From an uncultured Pseudomonadota bacterium (lineage in GTDB: Bacteria; Myxococcota_A; Polyangia; Fen-1088), in assembly GCA_963831685.1 (NCBI GenBank), contig CAWHRJ010000004.1, forward strand, positions 448,812 to 512,811: 64,000 bases of DNA, in the 5' to 3' direction. The position numbers and the translations under genes are program-made. Under the pieces are notes generated by a model that worked only from the letters and a program-made list of their open reading frames with translations, ran no database searches and was not told where the DNA came from. Shown here piece by piece: positions 12,696-35,850 of the stretch (position 1 is its first letter; the number at the start of each line of letters is the position of its first letter).

Positions 12696-14309
12696 ATGCA
12701 AGGAAACAGAACCGGAAAGACATTGGCCCTGCTGGCCACGCTGGGCTTTGGGACCCTCGCCGCAGGCTGCGGCAATCAATCGGAGGGCGCGTCGCCGCCG
12801 AGCGTCGCGCAGCAGGGGGCCTCGGAGGTGATCGACAGCTTCGAGACCGGCAGCGCGGCGGCCTGGACGCCGTTTTCGACCGGCGGCTCCACGATCCACG
12901 CCGCCGACGCGACGGTCCACGCGGACGGCGCCGCGAGCTCGACCGAGCTCACATACGACGTGGCGGCTGCCGGCTCGGCGGGCCTCGAGCGTGACTTTTC
13001 GTCGCCGCAGGACTGGTCGGCCGCCCCGGGGCTCACCCTGTGGGTCAACGGCCGAAACACGGGCGACACCTTCCTGGTCCAGATCTACGACGCCGGCCAT
13101 GAACGCTGGGAGTCGCGCTTCAAGGTCGACTTCACCGGGTGGCGCGAGATCGCCGTCCCCTTCTCGGGCCTGACCGCAGCCGCCTGGCAACCCCAGGACG
13201 CGCGCGTCGATGGCGTGCAGGACTTCGGCGGCGTGACCGGAATGGCGCTCGTCCCGTCGGAGAGCCCAGGTTCCGGCCTCCTCGACCTCGACACGCTCGC
13301 GCTCGGAACGCTCGCCACGTCGTCGCCCCAGTCGGGCACCGGCGCCGGGCGGCCGACCACCACCCCGACCGCGGCGCCCACGACGTCGCCGGACCCGACC
13401 CCGGCCGTGACGCCGACGCCCTCGGCGGCACCGACCCCGCCTGCGGCCCCGACCGCGACGCCGGCCACTCCCACCACGCCGCCCACGACGTCGGCGCCGA
13501 CCGCGCCCGCGACGCCGACGGCGACGCCGGCCGCGACGCCGGCCGCGACGCCGACGGTGACGCCGACCGCGGCCCCGACTGCGGCACCGGCGACCGCTCC
13601 GACCGCGGCCCCGACGGCCTCCGCGCCGAGCGGTCCCGTCACCGGGACGATCATCCCGCTCTACACGTCGCCAGCGGATCCCTCCTGGGCCACGGTGGCG
13701 GCGGCCAAGGCCGCGCACCCCGCGGTACCGGTCCTGGCGGTCGTCAACCCATCGAACGGTCCGGGCGGCGCGGCGGCGTCTGAGTACGCCGCGGGTATCG
13801 CCAAGCTGGCCGCCGCCGGGGTGAAGGTGATCGGCTACGTCCACACCTCTTGGGGGGCCCGGCCCACCGCCGAGCTCCAGGCCGAGATGAGCCAGTGGAA
13901 GAGCTGGTACCCGGGCGTGAGCGGCATCTTCTTCGACGAGATGGCCAACCAGGCGGGGCAGGAGTCCTACTACGCGGGCCTCACGAGCTATGCCAAGGGC
14001 CACGGGTTCGATTTCACGATCGGCAATCCGGGCTCGGACTCGTCTCCGACCTACGTCGGGACCGAGGACGTGATCCTCATCTACGAGAACGGCGGCCTCC
14101 CGTCGGTGACGGCGCTCGGCGGCTGGCACGCGTCGTACCCGCGCACCAACTTCGGCGTCATCCCGTATGCCGTCGGCAGCCTCGACGGTTCGTTCATCCA
14201 GGCGGCGAAGCCGTACGTGGCTTACATCTATCTGCAGAGCGACAACCTGCCGAATCCGTGGGACAGCGTCCCGCCGTATCTCGCCGACCTGGTGGCTGCC
14301 CTCGGCTGA
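12696..14309 (+). CDS. Secreted lipoprotein: N-terminal carbohydrate-binding-like beta-sandwich, Pro/Thr/Ala linker, C-terminal spherulin-4-like (GH135-type) domain
   Basis: Lipobox LAAGC. The C-terminal domain reads IIPLYTSPADPSW...VLAVVNPSNGPG...GVSGIFFDEMAN, which matches my memory of the spherulation-specific family 4 / Sph3 family. Confidence 0.8.
   Translation: MQGNRTGKTLALLATLGFGTLAAGCGNQSEGASPPSVAQQGASEVIDSFETGSAAAWTPFSTGGSTIHAADATVHADGAASSTELTYDVAAAGSAGLERDFSSPQDWSAAPGLTLWVNGRNTGDTFLVQIYDAGHERWESRFKVDFTGWREIAVPFSGLTAAAWQPQDARVDGVQDFGGVTGMALVPSESPGSGLLDLDTLALGTLATSSPQSGTGAGRPTTTPTAAPTTSPDPTPAVTPTPSAAPTPPAAPTATPATPTTPPTTSAPTAPATPTATPAATPAATPTVTPTAAPTAAPATAPTAAPTASAPSGPVTGTIIPLYTSPADPSWATVAAAKAAHPAVPVLAVVNPSNGPGGAAASEYAAGIAKLAAAGVKVIGYVHTSWGARPTAELQAEMSQWKSWYPGVSGIFFDEMANQAGQESYYAGLTSYAKGHGFDFTIGNPGSDSSPTYVGTEDVILIYENGGLPSVTALGGWHASYPRTNFGVIPYAVGSLDGSFIQAAKPYVAYIYLQSDNLPNPWDSVPPYLADLVAALG
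13320..13634 (+). repeat. Low-complexity Pro/Thr/Ala linker-coding region (about 105 aa of PT/AP repeats)
   Basis: The translation is TTTPTAAPTTSPDPTPAVTPTPSAAPTPPAAPTATPATPTTPPTT...APTAAPTASAP. The DNA is iterated gcgacgccg/accgcggcc units. Confidence 0.8.
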
Positions 14310-14344
14310 GCCCCGTTTGGCGCCCGAGCCCGGCGCCTCGACGA

Positions 14345-16687
14345 TCAGCAGTCGCTGTCTGTCACAGAAGTGCAGCCGGTCGGGCAGCAGTGATCCGAGC
14401 CGGCGGTCGAGCACGTCGTGATCGGGACGTGGCGGCAGGCGGAGTTGCAGGAGAGAGGATCGCCGACCAGCTGCTCCAGCGTGCACGGGTCGCCGTCGTC
14501 CGGGCAGGTGGTCGGGCAGGTGGTCGGAGGGTCGCAGGTCTCCCCGGCGCCGATGTGGCCGTCCCGGCAGGTCGGGGCGCAATCGCTGTCAGTGGCGGCG
14601 GTGCAGCCCGCGGGGCAGCAGCCATCGTTGTCGAGGCAGGCGACGACGGCGAAGTGCGTGCACCGGCGCGTGCAGTTCTGCACCGAGCCGCTGGCGATGT
14701 CGGTCGTGCAGGCGTCCGCGTCGTCGCAGGTCCGCGCGCAGGCGCCCGGCATGCCGGCGGTGATCGCCCGATCGCATTGCTCGCCCGCCTCGATGACCCC
14801 GTCGCCGCAGACGGCGGGACAGTCGGGATCGGTGGCGGCGGTGCAGCCCGCGGGGCAGCAGCCGTCGCCGCGCGCGCAGGCGCTGATCGGCGTGGCGACG
14901 CAGAGCGAGCTGCAGGTGCTGGGCGACCCGACCAAGGTCAACTTGGTGCAGGCGTTCGGCGCCGCGGGGCAAGCCGCGGGGCACGAGCCCGCGACCCCCT
15001 TGTCGCAGGTCTCGACCGGCGGGTCGACGACGCCGTCTCCGCACACGCCCGCGCAGTCCGCGTCGACGGTGAGGTCGCCGCCCGGCGGACAGCAGCCGTC
15101 GCCGGGCACGAAGGCCGTCACCGGCAGGTGGACGCAGCTGGCCGCGCAGGTTCCACCCGAGAGCAGGAGGTCGGTGGTGCAGGGATCGCCGTCGTCGCAG
15201 GCTGTCGGGCAGGCGCCCGGGTTGCCGGCCGAGATCGCGACGTCGCAGCTCTCGTCGATCTGGACCTTGCCGTCGCCGCAGGTCGCCGAGCAATCGGGAT
15301 CGGTGGCGGCGGTGCACCCGGCCGGGCAGCAGCCGTCGCTCTGCGGGCTGCAGGCCGCGATCGGGCTCGAGACACAGGTGGCGGTGCAGGCGCTCGTCGA
15401 GCCGGTCAGCGCCGTCTGCACGCAAGCCGACGGCGACGGAGGACAGCTCGTGGGGCAGGCGCCGGGCCCGACCGCCGCGCTGTCGCACGACTCGCCCGGT
15501 TCGACGACGCCGTCGCCGCAGCGGCCGGGGCAGTCGGTGTCGGTGACGCCGGTGCCGCCGTCCGGGCAACAGCCGTCGCCCGAGGTGGGGGTCGTGATCG
15601 ACGTGTGGGCGCATTTCACGGTGCAGCCGTTACCCACCAGAAAGTCGTTGGTGCAGCTCTTGCCGTCGTCGCAGTTGGTCGGGCAACTTCCGGCCTTCGG
15701 CGGCACGATCCCGACGTCGCACGATTCGCCCGTCCCCACCACTCCGTCGCCGCAGCTCTGCGGGCAATCGGTGTCGGTGGCGTAGGTCGCACCCGGCGGA
15801 CAGCAGCCGTCACCTCCCTGCGGCAGAATCCCCTGCTGGTAGTGCATGCAGATCGCCTGGCAGGTCGCGGGCGATACCAGCAGGCTGACGGCGCACGGAT
15901 CGGTGGACGTACACTCGCCCGAAGTCGGACAGGCGCCGGGGAGGCCGGGGGCGATCGCCGTGTCGCAGGTCTCGCCGGGGTCGACCTGTCCGTTGCCGCA
16001 GGTCGGGGAGCAGTCCGAATCGAGCGCGTGTGTCGTCGACGCCGGACAGCACCCGTCGCTTGTCGGGGGCGTGGCCGTAATCAGGACGTGCGTGCAGGAG
16101 AGGGTGCAGCCGCTGCCCGCCGGTATGTCGACCGTGCACGCCACACCATCGTCGCAGTCGGCCGGCGGGCATGCGCCGGGATCGCCGGCGGCGATGGCGA
16201 CGTCGCAGGTCTCGCCGGGGTCGACGCGCCCGTTGCCGCAGCGGGGGCTGGTGGCCGCGTCGGCCCCGCCATCGGCGCCCGAGCTGCCGCCGGTACCGCC
16301 CGTGCACGGGCCGCCACCGCAGGTTAGGCCCACATAGACGGTCGGGCGGCCGTTGGGGCCGACGATCGTCGAGGCGACCCGTCCGGTCGCGACGGGCGAC
16401 CCGGTTGGCCCGAGGGCGGTGACCGCAACGCTGATGTTCCCCGTCGCGTTCGGCGGCAGGTCGGCCCCGAGCGTGGTCGGAAAGGCGATCGGCTCGCCGT
16501 CGGGACGCGCGTAGACGTTGGACGCTGCGCCCGCGGGCCCCGTGATCGTCACGTTCAGCGTGCTCACGGGGGGCGGCGTGCCGGAGGCGGTCACGACCAG
16601 CACCATGACGGCGTCGCCGCTGCTCTGGCAGGCGGCGGCCGAGAGGGCCAATGCCGCGACCATCGGGAGGGCCACCCGGCGCATCAT
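14345..16687 (-). CDS. Cys-rich repeat lipoprotein with eight about 80-aa modules (myxobacterial CGNG..DPGE.CD type)
   Basis: The start ATGATG at 16687 overlaps the upstream stop (TGATGATG). Signal plus lipobox: MMRRVALPMVAALALSAAAC. An Ig-like N-terminal region is followed by eight tandem modules. Confidence 0.85.
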   Translation of the reverse strand: MMRRVALPMVAALALSAAACQSSGDAVMVLVVTASGTPPPVSTLNVTITGPAGAASNVYARPDGEPIAFPTTLGADLPPNATGNISVAVTALGPTGSPVATGRVASTIVGPNGRPTVYVGLTCGGGPCTGGTGGSSGADGGADAATSPRCGNGRVDPGETCDVAIAAGDPGACPPADCDDGVACTVDIPAGSGCTLSCTHVLITATPPTSDGCCPASTTHALDSDCSPTCGNGQVDPGETCDTAIAPGLPGACPTSGECTSTDPCAVSLLVSPATCQAICMHYQQGILPQGGDGCCPPGATYATDTDCPQSCGDGVVGTGESCDVGIVPPKAGSCPTNCDDGKSCTNDFLVGNGCTVKCAHTSITTPTSGDGCCPDGGTGVTDTDCPGRCGDGVVEPGESCDSAAVGPGACPTSCPPSPSACVQTALTGSTSACTATCVSSPIAACSPQSDGCCPAGCTAATDPDCSATCGDGKVQIDESCDVAISAGNPGACPTACDDGDPCTTDLLLSGGTCAASCVHLPVTAFVPGDGCCPPGGDLTVDADCAGVCGDGVVDPPVETCDKGVAGSCPAACPAAPNACTKLTLVGSPSTCSSLCVATPISACARGDGCCPAGCTAATDPDCPAVCGDGVIEAGEQCDRAITAGMPGACARTCDDADACTTDIASGSVQNCTRRCTHFAVVACLDNDGCCPAGCTAATDSDCAPTCRDGHIGAGETCDPPTTCPTTCPDDGDPCTLEQLVGDPLSCNSACRHVPITTCSTAGSDHCCPTGCTSVTDSDC
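14348..16249 (-). repeat. Eight tandem coding repeats (about 240 nt each) of a Cys-rich module
   Basis: Each module has the pattern C[GR][ND]G.V..GE.CD....G.PG.CP..C.D...C..D.......C...C.H..I.....DGCCP.G......D.DC. The pattern is visible in the translation of ORF 14345..16804. Confidence 0.8.
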
Positions 16688-17310
16688 CAGAAGAACTTCT
16701 TGTCCCCGAGATCGGTGCTGGGCGTCGACGTTTCGGATCGGCCGGCCAGTGCCGCCGCGGTCGCGCCGGCCGCCAGCGCCACGCCGATCGCCGTCCAGAG
16801 CCACCAGCGGCGCCAGATCGGCGTGGGGTGCTTGGCGGCCGTCCCCGCCGTCGCGCCCGACGCGGACGTGAGCCCGGCGGCCGGAACGAGTGGGGGTGCG
16901 GCCCGCAGGCCCTCGATCTCCCCGACCCGCCGCTCGGCGATGTCGCGATCCGGCCCGGCCGCGGCGCCCGCCAGGTAGCGCTCGTAATAGAAGAGCGCCT
17001 GTTCGGTCGCGCCGAGCTGGCGGTACGCCTCGGCGATCTGAAACAGGAACTGCGGATCGGCGCGCAGCTCGTAGGCCCGCCGGTACTCGGCGATGGCATC
17101 CTGGTAGCGCCCGAGGAGGTAGAGCCGGTGCCCCTGGGCGACGTGCTCTTCGACCTCGACGTCGGCCGGCGTGGAGGCGGCGGCCGACGTGGCGGCGTCG
17201 GGCGGGGCAGGGGGTGCGCTGCGCGCGGGCCTGGCCGCGAGCACGACGAACGCGAGCAGGAAAGCGAGCAAGAAAGCTCGAAGCGACGCGAGGGGTCTGA
17301 GGCTAAGCAC
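16687..17310 (-). CDS. TPR-containing, Pro/Ala-linker, single-pass membrane protein (cassette 1 anchor)
   Basis: GTG start and a signal/anchor. The TPR block reads HRLYLLGRYQDAIAEYRRAYELRADPQFLFQIAEAYRQLG...YYERYL. The C-terminal TM reads WWLWTAIGVALAAGATAAALA. It is homologous to the product of 34955..35850. Confidence 0.8.
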   Translation of the reverse strand: MLSLRPLASLRAFLLAFLLAFVVLAARPARSAPPAPPDAATSAAASTPADVEVEEHVAQGHRLYLLGRYQDAIAEYRRAYELRADPQFLFQIAEAYRQLGATEQALFYYERYLAGAAAGPDRDIAERRVGEIEGLRAAPPLVPAAGLTSASGATAGTAAKHPTPIWRRWWLWTAIGVALAAGATAAALAGRSETSTPSTDLGDKKFF

Positions 17311-17336
17311 GGAAACCCGCTGCCTTTTCAGGGACG

Positions 17337-17366
17337 ATTCTGCGCCCCGCGCCGCGCCGCCGTCAA
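17337..17366 (-). promoter_or_regulatory. Candidate sigma-70-like promoter TTGACG-N18-CAGAAT for the TPR/Cys-rich operon
   Basis: On the minus strand, TTGACG is at 17366-17361 and CAGAAT at 17342-17337, about 27 nt upstream of the GTG at 17310. This is a pattern match only. Confidence 0.25.
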
Positions 17367-17383
17367 CGCCGCCTCCCGTCCGT

Positions 17384-19203
17384 TCAGCGCCGCCGCGGCT
17401 TGGAAGGAGTGCGGACGAGCACCGGCTCGAGCGGTGCCAGCGTCGCCATCCAGCGGTCGGCGACCGCCTGCGCGGCGGCGGCGAGCGGCGCCGGCGCGGC
17501 GGCGGCCAACGGCGCCGGAACGGCGGCCGCGAAGATCGACCGCGCGCTCTTTGCCAGCGCCGAGGAGAGCTTGGGGGCCTTCCCCTTGCCGCCGGCGAGC
17601 AGCGCCTCGAACGCCTTCACGTCGGCGGGGGCGAGCGGCCGGAAACGATCGGGCCGCGCCGCGCGCTTGGTTTCGCCCCCCGCGAGGAGGCGCGCGACGA
17701 GGGCCGTGCGGGCCAGCGTGCCGAGATCGAGCGCCGCCTCGTCCCCGCCGGTCCCTTCCAGCGCCGCTCCCCCAGGGGCGACGTCCTCGGTCGTCACGCC
17801 CAGGCCCCGGACCAGCGTCTGGGCGGCGGCCGCCTGCTCGACCGCGGCGGCGGCGCGCGCGAGGTCGGCGAGTCGTCGGAACGGCCGCTCGCCCCCGGCG
17901 GGCGGCTCGTCGAGCAGCCGGGGGAACATCGGGCGCAGCCGGGTGACGGCCTCCAGCACCGTTGCGTCGTCGGTCTCCGCGAGATCGAAGCCGCGGCGGC
18001 CGAACGGCCCGTCGCTACGTAGCGTGAGCGCCAGCTGCTTGACCTTGCCGACGAGGCTGACGCCCAGCCTGAAGAGCCGGCCGAGCGGGATGGTGCGCAG
18101 CGCTGCCGCGCCGCGCGCGTCGTCCCCCTGGGCGAGCCACTCGATCGCGAGATCGAGCGTGGCCACCAGCCGCTCGAGCACGGCGGACACCGCCTCGTCG
18201 TCGCCGGGAGTGACCGGTCGGCGGCGAGCACGCGGTTGGTGAGCGCCACCAGCGCGAAGTGCAGCTCGTCGACCTCGTCGCCGGCGGCGAGCTCCTGCGC
18301 GGCGCGCGCGAACGGCGACGCGTCGGTGTCGCCCAGCCGCTCGACCAGCGCCGTCGGCATGCGGAGGGCCGCGCCGTCGCCGCCGGGCTGGGCGTGCGCA
18401 CGTGGTTCGTGTCCGCGCCGCGCCTCGCCGATGCGCACGCTCGCCGGGTCGAGCTCGCGGTAGACCTCGAGCGCCTCGTAGTAGTCGGCGAAGCCGAGAT
18501 CCGCCATGCGCCCCTGGCGCCAGCGGTAGGCCGTCTCCTCGAGCTCCGAGTCGAGCTCGCCGGTAGAGCCGACCAGGAGCCGCCGCGCGAGGTCCAGGTC
18601 GGTCCGGTAGAGCGCGTCGACGAGCCGGATGAGCGCCCGCGCCGACATCGGGCCCTTGCTCTGCCCCCTCGGGCGCGCCTGCAGAACCGGCACGACGCCG
18701 CGACGTCGAGCACGAAGAAGCCGTCGGGCGTCGGGTAGAACGTCCCCTCGGGCTCGTCGGGCGGCTTCTTCCTGGGCGCAGATCGTAGATGCGGCTCGTC
18801 TTGCGCAGCAGCAGAGGCGCGAACGAGCTCGACGTCGAGCCCCGCGACCCAGCGCCAATCGTCTCGTACGGCGCCTCGGCCATCGCCTCGAGCCACTCGG
18901 CGAGCGCGCGCGGGCGCGACCTGGTCGCGCTCCCACAGCGCGAAGTCGAGCACCACCTGCAGCTGCTCGGCGCGTCGCTGCGGCGAGGATGTCGCCCGCG
19001 TCGCGCGAGGCCCATCTCGTGCATGACGTAGTAGAGCTCGTCGCCGGGCAGCGCGCGGACCGCCGCGCTCGGGGTCGGGGCCCTCGAGCAGGGCGTCGGC
19101 GCGGCGCAGCTTGCGCCCGCGCCCGAGCTGCGCGCGGTAGCGCGACAGGGCGACGACGTTGTCGGGCTCGGAGGCGGTCGGGCAGGGCTTCGGGCGGTGC
19201 CAT
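17384..19203 (-). pseudogene. Conserved hypothetical protein (about 600 aa) with the reading frame broken many times
   Basis: Protein-like segments are spread over three minus-strand frames (track ORFs 17384..19714, 17794..19203, 18015..18956). Examples are ALPGDELYYVMHEMGL, VLDFALWERDQVAPARA, LAEWLEAMAEAPYETIG, TFYPTPDGFFVLDVAA and ALIRLVDALYRTDLDLARRLLVGSTGELDSELEETAYRWRQGRMADLGFADYYEALEVYRELDP. The last about 270 aa (17384 to about 18200) are intact in one frame. Confidence 0.6.
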
Positions 19204-20618: not shown

Positions 20619-22578
<1,960 letters not shown>

Positions 22579-22616
22579 GGGCGCTCGCTTCGCTCGCTGC
22601 GCCCGGTCGCGCGTCG

Positions 22617-22687
22617 CCTTGCGCGGGAAGATCGGGCCTGCTCACCCTCCACGCCCTTCCCACCCGGCCCGATCTTCCCGCGCAAGG
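22617..22687 (+). terminator. Perfect 22-bp inverted repeat (27-nt loop) downstream of ftsH, followed by CTTTT
   Basis: The left arm CCTTGCGCGGGAAGATCGGGCC (22617-22638) is the exact reverse complement of the right arm at 22666-22687. This was read directly. Confidence 0.6.
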
Positions 22688-22737
22688 CTCGGGTCGCTTT
22701 TGGCCATGTGGTGAGGGAGGATCGGGGATAGTGAGGC

Positions 22738-29618: not shown

Positions 29619-30517
29619 CGCATCGACATCGACCAGCTGGCGATCGTCTTGCTGCCGTTGAACTTGGGGAACATCGGCATGCGCGAGAGGACGCAGCTGG
29701 CGAACCCGCCCTTCTGACCATTCACCTTCACCGCGGAGACCTTGCCGGTGCCGCGCACGACGAAGTCGAGGCTCATCTCGCTGAGGCCCGGGTTGTGCTT
29801 TCGCTCGGCCATGAGGCAGGGAACGAGGCCCCGGTAGTGGTGCATCATCGACTCCTCGATGACGCCGTCGTCGAGGGTCTCGTCGCCCGCGCTGGCGAAC
29901 TTCGAGGCGTCGCCGATGTTCGTGTCGTTGCTGAACTCCCCGTCCTCGGCTTTCGAGCCGCTGGCGTGGTGGCCGCTGCCGCGCTTGGCGACGTGCGCGC
30001 TCTGGAAGCTCAGCTTGACGTCCTTGAGGAACGCGTCGACCTCGGCCTCCTCCTCGCGCGACGCCAGCTTGGTCTCGTCTGTCGCCTTGCGCGTCATGAC
30101 GTAGAAGCCGACGCCGCCCGCCGCCACCAGCAGGAAGACGATGCTGAACAAGAACGTCGCCGCGCGCTTCTTCTTCTCGGTGCTCTCCATCGTCTGCTCG
30201 GCGGTCGCGCGCCGCTTCTGCTCGCGGCGGCGCTCCGCGGTCTTGGTGAACTCGCCCAGCGCCGGGAAGTCCTTCACCTTCTTGCGCGCGCCGGTGTCGC
30301 TGTCGACGATCATGTGCTCGCCGATGATCTCGCCGCGCGCGATCTGCGCGCGGATTTGCGCCAGCGAGAACGGCCCGAAGTCGAGCTTGTCCTTCTGGAT
30401 GAGCCAGCGCTCCTGGGTCTCGTCGACGACGCCGCCCGCCGCCTCGGCGACGTTGAAGGCGTGCCCGAGCGAGCTGCGCGGCGGCGGCGCCGCCGGGGGC
30501 TCGACCGACTGCTGCAC
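29615..30517 (-). CDS. GYF_2-domain / TM / C-terminal beta-domain protein, probably the C-terminal half of the upstream kinase-like gene
   Basis: The GYF-type motif is WLIQKDKLDFGPFSLAQIRAQIARGEIIGEHMIVDSDTG. A K/R-rich stretch is followed by the TM FLFSIVFLLVAAGGVGFYVM. The frame stays open upstream of the annotated GTG. Confidence 0.7.
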   Translation of the reverse strand: MQQSVEPPAAPPPRSSLGHAFNVAEAAGGVVDETQERWLIQKDKLDFGPFSLAQIRAQIARGEIIGEHMIVDSDTGARKKVKDFPALGEFTKTAERRREQKRRATAEQTMESTEKKKRAATFLFSIVFLLVAAGGVGFYVMTRKATDETKLASREEEAEVDAFLKDVKLSFQSAHVAKRGSGHHASGSKAEDGEFSNDTNIGDASKFASAGDETLDDGVIEESMMHHYRGLVPCLMAERKHNPGLSEMSLDFVVRGTGKVSAVKVNGQKGGFASCVLSRMPMFPKFNGSKTIASWSMSMR

Positions 30518-31422
30518 GGCGGCCTGCCGGGCCGCGACGTTCGCGCCGTGGCCGCTTGGGACGGGGCGGCGGCCGGCGCGCCGTTGGCAGCAGGCTGGGC
30601 CAGGGCGGCGGCGAGCGCGTCGCGCAGCTCCATCGGCGAGGCGAAGCGGGCCGCGGGATCCTGGGCGAACGCCGCGGCCAGGATGGAGTCGACGATGGGG
30701 GGGACGTCTGCCGCGACCTGCGAGACCGGCGTGAACGGCGTCGACGGGAGGCGGCCGGTGACGACCTCGTAGAGCATGACCCCCAGCGAGTAGACGTCGG
30801 AGGCCGTGGTCGGCGCCGCCCCGGCCAGCACCTCGGGGGAGCAGTAAACGTGGTCGGGGGCGCCGCTGGGCGCGCCGCGCCGGGCCAGCGCCGGGACGGT
30901 GCGCGAAAGGCCGAGGTCGGCCACCTTGACGCGCCCGGCCTTGTTGACCCAGATGGCCGCCGGGTTGAGGCCGCCGTGGGGCATGAGGCCGGCCGCGCTC
31001 TCGAGGCCGTTCGCCACGTGCGTGATCAGGTTGCAGGCGCCCTTGAAGGAGACGTTGCGCCCCTCGCGCCGTTTGCCGTCGATGAAGTCGCGCAGCGTCT
31101 GGCCGTCGAGCAGCTCGGTGGCGATGAAGTAGTAGTCGGCCTCGCGGCCGACGGTCAGCACGTCGATCAGGTTCTTGTGGACGAGGGCGCTGGCGTTCTC
31201 GATGTCGGTCACCAGCTGCGCGGCGGCGGGGCCCAGCGTGCGCAGCGAGATGACACGGACCGCGGCGGGGCCGCGCCGGTTGGCGTCGGTCGCCCGATAG
31301 GTCTGGCTGACAGAATCTTGACCCAGGAGGGCGTCGAGCCTGAACCGGCTGCCAACGACGGCGCCGGCTTGAAACTGCCCGGCGGGGGCCGACACGGCGA
31401 GCGAGTCACGTGCGGGGGCCAT
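30310..31422 (-). CDS. Ser/Thr-kinase-like domain protein with degenerate catalytic motifs (predicted pseudokinase); the last about 90 codons look out of frame
   Basis: The kinase fold is recognisable (ATELLDGQTLRDF, KVADLGLS, SPEVL, DVYSLGVMLYE). However the HRDLKPxN motif reads HGGLNPAA, VAIK reads AVRVI, and there is no Gly-rich loop. The tail is R/S-rich and overlaps the GYF ORF. Confidence 0.7.
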   Translation of the reverse strand: MAPARDSLAVSAPAGQFQAGAVVGSRFRLDALLGQDSVSQTYRATDANRRGPAAVRVISLRTLGPAAAQLVTDIENASALVHKNLIDVLTVGREADYYFIATELLDGQTLRDFIDGKRREGRNVSFKGACNLITHVANGLESAAGLMPHGGLNPAAIWVNKAGRVKVADLGLSRTVPALARRGAPSGAPDHVYCSPEVLAGAAPTTASDVYSLGVMLYEVVTGRLPSTPFTPVSQVAADVPPIVDSILAAAFAQDPAARFASPMELRDALAAALAQPAANGAPAAAPSQAATARTSRPGRPPCSSRSSPRRRRRRAARSGTPSTSPRRRAASSTRPRSAGSSRRTSSTSGRSRWRKSARRSRAARSSAST

Positions 31423-34954: not shown

Positions 34955-35850
34955 ATGGCATCGAATGTCATGACGCGGCGACCTCGTCCATTCGCGCTGC
35001 TTTTTTCGATGATTCTGCTCTGCCTCGGGGCCAAAGAGGCGCGCGCGCAGCTGACGCCGCAGCAGAAACAGGACATCCACGTCCACTATCAGCAGGCGAC
35101 GCGCGCCTACGACCTCGGCAAGTACCAGGAGGCCGTCGACGAATACCAGAAGGTCTACGAGATCGACGGCGATCCGGTCATGCTCTACAACATCGGGCAG
35201 GCGTATCGGTTGAACGATCAGCCGCAAGAGTCGATTCACTTTTACCGGCGCTACCTGCAGCGGTCGCCCGAGGCGAGAAACCGCGACGACGTCGAGCGGA
35301 AGATTGCTTCGCTGGAAAGACTGATCGAGGAGCGCCGCAAGGCGGCCGCCGCGGTCGCGCCGCCGCCGCCCAAGAAGGAACCGCCGCCGCCGCCGCCCAA
35401 GGTCGAGGCGCCGCCGCCGCCGGTGGTCACACCGGTCGTGGTGGCGCCGCCGCCCCCGCCGCCACCGGAGCCGCCGTCGACCACGCGGCGGGTGGTCGGC
35501 TGGTCTATGATCGGCGTCGGCGTGGCGAGCGGCGTGGTCGCGGTCATCGAAGGGGTCAACGCCAAGAACAAGGGCGATCAGCTGACGCAGAACTCGATGA
35601 TGACGACAAACGGGATGATCCGACGTTCGACGCCAACCAGCAGTCCCTCCAGTCGGAGGGCAAGACCGCCAACATCGTCGCCATCGTTTGCGGCATCGGC
35701 GGCACGGCGCTGGCCGTGACCGGAGCAATCATCCTCATCACCAACGGCTCGTCGTCGAGCGACGCGCCGCCCACGTCGACGACCAGCGTCAGCTTCACCC
35801 CCTGGCTGGCCCCCGGACTGGTCGGCGGAGGAATGGGGTTGAGGTTCTAG
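34955..35850 (+). pseudogene. TPR / Pro-rich linker / membrane protein (cassette 2 anchor), one frame break near 35588
   Basis: The TPR block reads ATRAYDLGKYQEAVDEYQKVYEIDGDPVMLYNIGQAYRLN...FYRRYL. A PPPPPK linker and a TM follow. After ...GDQLTQ the protein-like continuation is in another frame: DDPTFDANQQSLQSEGKTANIVAIVCGIGGTALAVTGAIILITNG...FTPWLAPGLVGGGMGLRF, with the stop at 35848-35850. Confidence 0.75.

Follow-up and report, generated by a model that had tools for sequence, protein, structure and literature searches.

Several envelope systems are known in which a lipoprotein is encoded next to a dedicated partner, or in which Cys-rich repeats are exposed by a myxobacterial protein. 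In the Slam (DUF560) systems, a protein with periplasmic N-terminal tetratricopeptide repeats (TPRs) is encoded beside the lipoprotein that it serves, and many such pairs can be present per genome (PMC5449769, PMC8406197). TraA of Myxococcus xanthus is a surface receptor with tandem Cys-rich repeats (PMC3325183). Here we describe a two-gene unit, cassette 1, located in a 64,000-nucleotide stretch of DNA (the window) from an uncultured bacterium assigned to the class Polyangia, in which a small TPR membrane protein (anchor 1) is encoded directly upstream of a Cys-rich lipoprotein. The window covers positions 448,812 to 512,811 of contig CAWHRJ010000004.1 (C4:448812-512811) of assembly GCA_963831685.1; the source genome comprises 6.3 Mb in 17 contigs with 70% G+C. 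Positions given without a contig prefix refer to the window. Cassette 1 is most likely a conserved two-gene operon whose products would act as one envelope complex. As judged by sequence similarity, many more TPR anchor and lipoprotein pairs of this kind exist, and they form a large family that has so far gone undescribed. A full-text search of the literature found no paper describing such pairs in myxobacteria.

The two genes are arranged as follows:
16687-17310, reverse strand: anchor gene, 207 amino acids (aa) plus stop, with a GTG start
14345-16687, reverse strand: lipoprotein gene, 780 aa plus stop, from open reading frame (ORF) reading
16682-16689, reverse strand: TGATGATG, overlap of the anchor stop and the lipoprotein start, from sequence reading

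The last base of the anchor stop TGA (16689-16687) is also the first base of the lipoprotein ATG (16687-16685), resulting in TGATG, and the orthologues of the anchor likewise start with MLSLR. The first-pass annotation, which was made from the letters of the window, had proposed this overlap, an anchor plan of signal peptide, TPR, Ala/Pro linker and transmembrane segment, and a downstream 780-aa lipoprotein built from CGNG.VDPGE.CD-type modules. All three proposals held: TGATGATG was found at 16682-16689, the plan of the anchor agreed with the Pfam TPR_2 match and the AlphaFold2 model, and eight modules were counted, each opening with CG[ND]G.V.PGE.CD.

Both the pair and its close spacing were conserved in relatives. 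Of 24 genomes from the genus, about 20 contained a full-length anchor orthologue with 46-89% identity, and the lipoprotein gene was located directly 3' of the anchor in 18 of 19 orthologous loci of the genus; this count consists of 14 downstream genes called by script and four lipoprotein starts seen by eye, and the one other locus was broken. The distance between anchor and lipoprotein in the 14 called loci was -1 in five, -4 in five and +1 to +14 in four. The called downstream genes encoded proteins of 764-790 aa with 89-93 Cys in 13 cases and a protein of 619 aa with 51 Cys in the other. In the broken locus (L028; genome G001, C2:578000-589000), the anchor frame continues into the lipoprotein modules, which is probably a deletion or an assembly error rather than a true fusion.

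Across the orthologous loci, identity to the window was 43-86% for the anchor (52-96% for its TPR), 54-86% for the lipoprotein (35-83% for its N-terminal head and 55-86% for its modules) and 84-97% for the neighboring ABC ATPase. The ratio of nonsynonymous to synonymous substitution rates (dN/dS) against the orthologues ranged from 0.28 to 0.45 in the anchor and from 0.32 to 0.43 in the lipoprotein, with 0.40-0.71 in the head, indicating that both genes are real and under purifying selection. The ratio for the ABC ATPase was 0.12-0.16, and the two cassette genes thus evolve about three times faster than this housekeeping neighbor.

Anchor 1 belongs to a family of about 21 paralogues in the source genome, identified by tblastn and a hidden Markov model (HMM) of the orthologues. 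In the whole 6.3-Mb genome the HMM matched no more than 20 ORFs, and almost every one of these encodes a signal peptide, two TPRs, a low-complexity linker and a membrane segment. Between 9 and 35 anchor matches per genome were obtained in 39 of 40 other Polyangia genomes searched. The association with lipoproteins was evaluated by counting lipobox ORFs that start between -60 and +150 nt from the anchor stop, with 2056 genes as controls. By this automated rule, 11 of 20 anchors had such a lipobox ORF, compared with 174 of 2056 controls (8.5%; Fisher p = 1.7e-7); with tight spacing the numbers were 7 of 20 and 72 of 2056 (3.5%; p = 4.6e-6). Inspection by eye placed a lipoprotein gene immediately 3' of 15 of the 21 anchors, and the same pairing rules were seen in other families of the class.

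Based on their membrane ends, the paralogues, which have the N-terminal plan in common, can be categorized into three classes. Class-a anchors end with one helix starting K/R-WWFWT, followed by a short ..LG..F tail. Class-b anchors end with two helices and a predicted beta-hairpin-like tail ending in F, and some carry PEGA domains. Class-c anchors end with a domain whose sequence looks like a beta-barrel on visual inspection, and they are without a lipoprotein partner. Two paralogues, at C4:787690-788868 and C4:1179383-1181146 (both forward strand), have a signal peptide and a TPR start followed by such a barrel-like end as judged by eye; in both, no Pfam match to the end domain and no lipoprotein gene downstream were found. 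In a further anchor-like protein (C4:1082653-1084017, forward strand), the signal peptide leads into an extended Pro-rich stretch, after which come a WFW helix and the tail ..PPPTALGNMHAF. No TPR is visible in this protein, which is nevertheless followed by a head lipoprotein (C4:1083527-1085086, forward strand) of 359 aa with 9.7% Cys.

The following parts were recognized in anchor 1:
17212-17310, reverse strand: signal peptide, about aa 1-33, from sequence reading and a model helix at aa 5-25
16900-17169, reverse strand: TPR domain, aa 48-137, two TPRs and a capping helix, from Pfam TPR_2 and AlphaFold2 (predicted local distance difference test score, pLDDT, 97-98)
16819-16899, reverse strand: flexible linker rich in Ala, Pro and Gly, aa 138-164, pLDDT 44-57, without secondary structure
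16732-16818, reverse strand: hydrophobic helix with a Trp-rich start, aa 165-193, IWRRWWLWTAIGVALAAGATAAALAG, from the model
16690-16731, reverse strand: conserved C-terminal tail, aa 194-207, ..TPSTDLGDKKFF, from the orthologue alignment

The signal peptide contains an n-region with R5 and R11, the h-region AFLLAFLLAFVVLAA and the c-region ARPARS/A, and canonical AxA sites are present in the signal peptides of the anchor paralogues. Anchor 1 matched Pfam TPR_2 with 30.9 bits (cut-off 27; E = 2.2e-7) and TPR_8 with 26.2 bits (cut-off 25.7), which places it in the TPR-repeat family. The AlphaFold2 model has an overall pLDDT of 80, with the five TPR helices at 97-98. Structural comparison by Foldseek revealed similarity of the TPR to the idealized TPR 1na3 (E = 6e-4, root-mean-square deviation (rmsd) 1.7 Å), and the domain superposes on peptide-binding TPRs, for example binders of the Hsp90 peptide and SycD/PcrH, with an rmsd of 1.4-2 Å. 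A total of 25 TPR positions are invariant in 44 orthologues; only four positions of the TPR core (A72, P86, L89, A105) are invariant across the paralogues. The TPR surface is therefore near-invariant among orthologues and not among paralogues, and fits a specific partner for each TPR.

The linker varies in length and sequence among both orthologues and paralogues, and the helix start and the tail are strongly conserved. W166, W169, W170, W172 and T173 at the start of the helix are invariant in the orthologues, and the K/R-WWFWT motif is common to the class-a paralogues. In the tail, P197, L201, G202 and F206 are invariant in the orthologues, and the pattern P-[ST]-[ST]-x-L-G-x(2-4)-F is kept throughout the class, including class-a anchors of other Polyangia. 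The tail should be cytoplasmic according to simple segment counting. Four observations argue against a cytoplasmic tail: the positive charges are on the opposite flank of the helix, the ending of the tail resembles the C-termini of outer-membrane proteins, the class-b tails, which are periplasmic by the same count, end like the class-a tails, and a Cys pair is present in some class-a tails.

The lipoprotein consists of a lipid anchor, a head, a linker and a module array:
16628-16687, reverse strand: signal peptide and lipobox, aa 1-20, MMRRVALPMVAALALSAAAC, from sequence reading
16304-16627, reverse strand: N-terminal head, aa 21-128, a seven-stranded beta-sandwich, from model strands at 26-123 with pLDDT 80-93
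16241-16303, reverse strand: disordered linker rich in Gly, Ser and Asp, aa 129-149, pLDDT 30-48
14348-16240, reverse strand: eight tandem modules of 74-82 aa, aa 150-780, from sequence repeats and the model

Cys20 is the predicted lipidated residue (lipobox ..LSAAAC) and is at least 90% conserved in 46 homologues. The lipoboxes of the orthologues end in ..AAC, ..GGC, ..SGC or ..ASC, and the residue at position +2 after the lipid Cys is Q, G, H, R, A or S, never K or D; judged by motif alone, the protein is a bacterial lipoprotein of the Lgt/LspA substrate type. The head starts about five residues past the lipid Cys and contains an invariant FPT motif (FPTT is nearly invariant). The model of the whole protein, including head, linker and the eight modules, has a pLDDT of 81. 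A Foldseek search of this model against PDB gave nothing at E <= 1e-3; the best match had E = 1.4e-3, and all weak matches fell on the head of about 105 aa and were generic sandwiches of Ig-like, carbohydrate-binding module (CBM) or pilotin type.

The modules start at aa 150, 230, 312, 390, 470, 549, 627 and 707, corresponding to window positions 16240, 16000, 15754, 15520, 15280, 15043, 14809 and 14569, and are 41-60% identical to one another. Cys accounts for 91 of the 780 residues (11.7%). The modules have 10 core Cys apiece. Two more, which always co-occur and are predicted to give one additional disulfide, are present in modules 4, 6, 7 and 8; all module Cys are invariant in the 46 homologues. 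In the model, each module forms one beta-hairpin with loops (pLDDT 70-92). The protein ends with ..TSVTDSDC and the stop codon in the last module, without a C-terminal hydrophobic tag. Over its whole length it matched Pfam DUF4215 with 36.5 bits (cut-off 27; E = 5.8e-9); the best stretch extends over just positions 14-33 of the 47 in the profile, and none of the repeats reaches the cut-off by itself. An NCBIfam scan of the lipoprotein returned no family at E <= 0.01. Its sole sequence match in PDB was the 'CGNSRVDEGEECD' stretch of ADAM17, which was not significant (E = 0.25).

The residues E159, D162, D223 and D225 and their equivalents at each module junction are invariant in the 46 homologues and represent possible Ca2+ sites. 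In ADAM proteins and the disintegrin-like domains of snake venoms, the CGN(G/S)-x-V-(D/E)-x-GE-x-CD stretch forms a Ca2+ site. Within the source genome, the 80-aa module is found in this protein only. More than 1270 lipoprotein homologues were collected, and 117 of the best 120 have 750-830 aa. The lipoprotein of cassette 1 is not hypervariable: its length and its eight modules are fixed, and it is 54-86% identical across the genus.

The constant cargo feature of the cassette-1 class is the head, not Cys richness. Partner lipoproteins of the anchors in the source genome contain 0.4-12.8% Cys. When 1.84 billion representatives were searched with a head profile, 261 clusters matched at E <= 1e-3. 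In nearly all of them the matched region begins at aa 15-40, immediately behind a lipobox, and the head-bearing lipoproteins in public data range from 100 to 1315 aa with 0.1-10.8% Cys. Among six genomic contexts of such lipoproteins, a class-a anchor with WWFWT helix and ..LG..F tail was encoded directly upstream in four (L089, L090, L091, L093), and in the other two the gene directly upstream was not a class-a anchor. Conversely, each of the nine class-a anchors in the source genome has a lipoprotein gene behind it, and all nine lipoproteins start with a short tether that leads into a hydrophobic beta-strand. Cassette 1 shows the features that define class a, namely the full anchor plan, a lipoprotein within about 20 nt and a head 3-12 residues past the lipid Cys. 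Profile comparison by hhalign of the head with the class-a partners in the genome gave 96, 79, 56, 43 and 18% for five of them (shuffles <=2.4%), and less than 1.5% for three other class-a partners and all class-b partners; the orthologue HMM and jackhmmer detected the head in one further partner only in the source genome.

Four class-b anchors, including anchor 2, which lies in the same window (34955-35850, forward strand), are followed by Cys-rich lipoproteins of a different type, with the motif CF.P..PG..C. Anchor 2 is split over two frames, with a shift near 35600-35640: the frame at 34955-35719 encodes the signal peptide, the TPR, a Pro linker and the first helix, and the frame ending at 35850 encodes the second helix and ends with ..GGGMGLRF. 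The shift is probably an assembly indel because ftsH and the DUF6178 gene of the window are also frameshifted. Anchors 1 and 2 are 32% identical over 125 aa (E = 7e-21), in the signal peptide and TPR part only.

These results allow the remaining proposals of the first-pass annotation to be evaluated. It had matched anchor 1 to 34955-35850, and this was right for the signal peptide and the TPR; the membrane end is of a different type, and position 35850 is reached across the frame change. Treating the two as the same anchor type therefore needs correction, as they represent different subclasses, one with a single helix and ..LG..F tail and the other with two helices and an F-ending tail. The proposal of a modular system rather than a coincidence survives in the form of an anchor family with enriched pairing, and not as one anchor family serving two Cys-rich cargo types; Cys richness as a shared theme was contradicted by the partners (0.4-12.8% Cys) and the head lipoproteins (0.1-10.8%). 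The likeness of the anchors goes beyond generic TPR similarity, as the 20 HMM-matched ORFs nearly all share the plan, and the pairing is kept in relatives, both in 18 of 19 orthologous loci and in other families. The annotation had also proposed testing whether the linker and transmembrane regions co-vary with cargo type. Such co-variation exists, class a occurring with head lipoproteins and class b with CF.P..PG..C lipoproteins, which puts anchors 1 and 2 in opposite groups.

In the source genome, about 124 lipobox ORFs qualified as Cys-rich candidates (at least 6% Cys), which is an upper bound because the set was not limited to verified genes. An upstream anchor was flagged for five of them, and a sixth Cys-rich candidate with an anchor upstream is located at C4:1656603. 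A need for the anchor by Cys-rich lipoproteins in general was ruled out, as most of these candidates are without one.

The coupled genes, the peptide-binding type of the TPR, its partner-specific surface and the two-way genomic link between head and anchor together favor a docking or assembly complex. The two-way link also points to the head as the partner of the TPR. We give slightly better than even chances to a reading in which anchor 1 is the dedicated docking or assembly partner of its lipoprotein in an envelope complex. According to this proposal, both proteins would be made in coupled amounts and both exported. The anchor would be exported by its cleavable signal peptide, placing a small peptide-binding-type TPR in the periplasm on a flexible Ala/Pro linker, held to the membrane by one Trp-capped, Gly/Ala-rich helix. 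The lipoprotein would carry its beta-sandwich head almost directly on the lipid anchor, followed by a 630-residue array of eight disulfide-knotted modules, and the acidic junction motifs (TD.DC ... CGNG.VD.GE.CD) would probably bind Ca2+ and stiffen the array. The TPR may recognize the head or the short tether of its one lipoprotein, by which the anchor would fix, position or stabilize the lipoprotein at the membrane. The module array may be the working part, serving for binding or as a spacing rod. The gene structure with its overlap, the domain anatomy, the conserved and enriched pairing, the two-way link between head and anchor and the purifying selection are observed; the physical contact, the contacting surfaces, the Ca2+ binding, the localization and the function in this scheme are inferred.

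Several observations weigh against the docking reading. Within the lipoprotein the head evolves fastest, and within the anchor the TPR evolves slowest, which is not the simplest expectation for a tightly co-evolving interface. The head was recognizable by profile in only about five of the eight other class-a partners of the genome. The co-variation between anchor classes and cargo types is no proof of contact by itself because whole cassettes have probably been duplicated as units, and the many Cys-rich candidates without an anchor mean that the anchor serves no general folding or export need. Topology is a further difficulty: an N-out/C-in span of anchor 1 would call for the positive charges on the other flank of the helix, and the conserved tail ending in F resembles a periplasmic recognition peptide, which adds to the doubt. 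The docking model assigns no role to this strongly conserved tail. RNA sequencing runs covering the cassette-1 locus were looked for and none were found.

An alternative function in signaling was considered because kinase genes, recognized by sequence motif only, lie upstream of sister cassettes, and the anchor may therefore also couple lipoproteins to signaling. In this explanation, which we regard as unlikely but the strongest of the alternatives, the helix or tail of the anchor would link the lipoprotein, as a sensor, to a bitopic Ser/Thr kinase encoded elsewhere, and the module array would be a ligand-sensing ectodomain. A Ser/Thr kinase is encoded directly upstream on the same strand in five of eight class-a loci from other Polyangia families (L032, L069, L071, L079, L080) and upstream of one of the nine class-a anchors in the source genome (C4:1031761-1033473), and kinases lie near four of eight class-b anchors in the source genome. 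The invariant helix start and tail of the anchor are as expected for contact with a membrane protein. However, kinase motifs were absent within 6 kb of cassette 1 and from the 19 orthologous loci, with DUF6178 upstream wherever checked. Moreover, kinases are so numerous in myxobacterial genomes that some adjacency is expected, the five-of-eight count has no control rate, and the kinases were called by motif only. A kinase in cis for cassette 1 was ruled out by the scan of the locus and its orthologues. L032 (2363-6626), from another Polyangia family, has all three genes in a row; in this order, they encode a transmembrane Ser/Thr kinase of 633 aa, a class-a anchor ending ..PPASALGNIDFK and a head lipoprotein, roughly 620 aa long, whose end is Cys-rich. 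An ORF with Ser/Thr kinase-like motifs (..VKVADLGLSR..) is also present in the window at 30310-31422 on the reverse strand, about 3.5 kb from cassette 2 (the cassette of anchor 2) and on the other strand.

It is less probable still, and in our view quite unlikely, that anchor 1 is a Slam-like export helper, a TPR protein that would deliver the lipoprotein to the outer membrane or the surface, where the Cys-rich rod would be displayed outside like the stalk of TraA. The gene logic matches, with a periplasmic TPR protein beside a lipoprotein and many paralogous pairs (PMC5449769), and a disulfide-rich array of 630 residues is large for the periplasm; the surface receptor TraA uses Cys-rich repeats (PMC3325183). 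In addition, anchor 2 matched TPR_Slam weakly (20.5 bits, E = 6.8e-4, below the cut-off of 35.2), and some paralogues fuse the same TPR to a barrel-like end, recognized by eye with no fold prediction or family match. Other observations speak against this reading. DUF560 gave no match in anchor 1, anchor 2 and four paralogues, including the two barrel-like ones, and TPR_Slam (PF24575) gave none in anchor 1; no DUF560 barrel or pore-forming part was recognized in anchor 1 or the paralogues tested. One helix cannot carry a protein that is already folded and disulfide-bonded across a membrane, a lipoprotein partner is missing precisely from the barrel-bearing paralogues, and the lipoprotein is without the C-terminal barrel domain of Slam substrates. 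Work on lipoprotein linkers indicates that a short tether after the lipid Cys disfavors efficient Lol transport. This lead also speaks against export of a lipoprotein with a tether of about five residues.

The explanation that the overlap reflects only a compact operon, and that both proteins act independently in the envelope, is very unlikely. In its favor, contact is inferred, lipoprotein genes are common (just downstream of 8.5% of control genes) and TPR proteins are abundant in myxobacteria. Against it, the pairing survives divergence down to 43% anchor identity (18 of 19 orthologous loci), is repeated among the paralogues (15 of 21) and in other families, and is recovered when the search starts from the lipoprotein head and leads back to anchors.

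The docking reading can be extended, speculatively and with low probability, to a 'plug-in' envelope system of Polyangia. A constant adaptor, composed of signal peptide, two TPRs, linker, WWFWT helix and ..LG..F tail, would dock lipoproteins by their membrane-proximal head and present interchangeable bodies (Cys-knot rods, fn3, FG-GAP, propeller-like), in about one third of the cassettes to a bitopic Ser/Thr kinase. Cassette 1 would then be a kinase-less, housekeeping-like member, its Ca2+-stiffened eight-module rod serving as a periplasm-spanning or surface ruler or as a ligand sensor, and the F-ending tail would be a periplasmic recognition peptide, implying an unusual topology of the anchor.

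Myxobacteria encode hundreds of lipoproteins and Ser/Thr kinases, most without a known role. If true, a recurrent two-gene unit that links a small TPR membrane protein with a single lipoprotein by way of a conserved head would provide a rule for grouping and testing many envelope proteins now called 'hypothetical'. The kinase-bearing sister cassettes suggest how receptor kinases without sensor domains might receive signals from outside. For the 80-residue module with 10-12 Cys there is neither a solved structure nor a dedicated curated family, and the conserved tail of the anchor poses a clear question of topology. All parts of the cassette are of familiar kinds, and the organism is uncultured.

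The gene order around cassette 1 is ftsH, tilS, DUF6178, anchor, lipoprotein, a CBM11/Spherulin4 lipoprotein on the other strand, and the ABC ATPase. The ftsH gene (20656-22714, forward strand) has a frame change near 21650-21700, and the gene directly upstream of anchor 1 (17384 to about 19300, reverse strand), identified as DUF6178 with E = 1e-100, has at least two. The assembly therefore carries indel errors, which may be the source of its low completeness estimate (74%); despite them, cassette 1 is intact and has the length of its orthologues. The 537-aa lipoprotein at 12696-14309 (forward strand) consists of CBM11 and Spherulin4 joined by a Pro/Thr/Ala linker of about 100 aa. Its stop and that of the cassette-1 lipoprotein are convergent, 35 nt apart, and its gene is syntenic in most orthologous loci. 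One regulatory feature was found:
17337-17366, reverse strand: promoter-like site, TTGACG, 18 nt, CAGAAT, by consensus match only

This site is located between the DUF6178 gene and the start of the anchor, which are 73 nt apart, and is the sole sigma-70-like match in 14000-17600 (0.1 expected from shuffles). A terminator 3' of the cassette-1 lipoprotein gene was searched for and none was found. Relatives with the same genes are metagenome-assembled genomes labeled Polyangia bacterium, uncultured Myxococcales or 'MFD...bin', and DNA sequencing runs with parts of the cassette-1 locus came from soil, rhizosphere and peat only.

Compared with described proteins, the modules resemble DUF4215 (PF13948), a myxobacterial Cys-rich repeat, in that each opens with CGNG..(D/E).GE.CD. 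The module is about twice the DUF4215 unit, with about 80 aa, 10-12 Cys, a CC pair and a beta-hairpin, and the cassette-1 lipoprotein may be a peripheral DUF4215 member. The start of the ADAM17 disintegrin domain (PDB 2i47) contains the string CGN(G/S)-x-V-(D/E)-x-GE-x-CD, which matches the module over about 13 residues, whereas the rest of the module is without a counterpart.

Among myxobacterial systems, cassette 1 is like TraA/TraB (PMC3325183) in having a Cys-rich-repeat envelope protein encoded in a two-gene operon with translational overlap with its partner. TraA differs in its PA14-like head, TIGR04201-type repeats and MYXO-CTERM tag, whereas the cassette-1 lipoprotein has a lipobox; in the latter, Pfam yielded only DUF4215, with no PA14-like domain, and no MYXO-CTERM tag was present. 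The partner is OmpA-like in TraB and a TPR protein here. TraA/TraB is the nearest myxobacterial use of Cys-rich repeats.

As in the Slam systems of Neisseria and other Proteobacteria, a TPR protein gene stands beside a lipoprotein gene, several pairs occur per genome and the lipoprotein bodies are diverse. Slam membership was ruled out by the absence of DUF560 and the sub-cut-off TPR_Slam score, and Slam and anchor 1 have no homology past generic TPR. Slam is an outer-membrane beta-barrel, whereas anchor 1 has one alpha-helix and 14 further residues. Gene order and phylum differ as well, and the recognized lipoprotein domain would be an N-terminal head here instead of the C-terminal barrel of Slam substrates. 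In gene logic, Slam with its surface lipoproteins is the nearest system to cassette 1.

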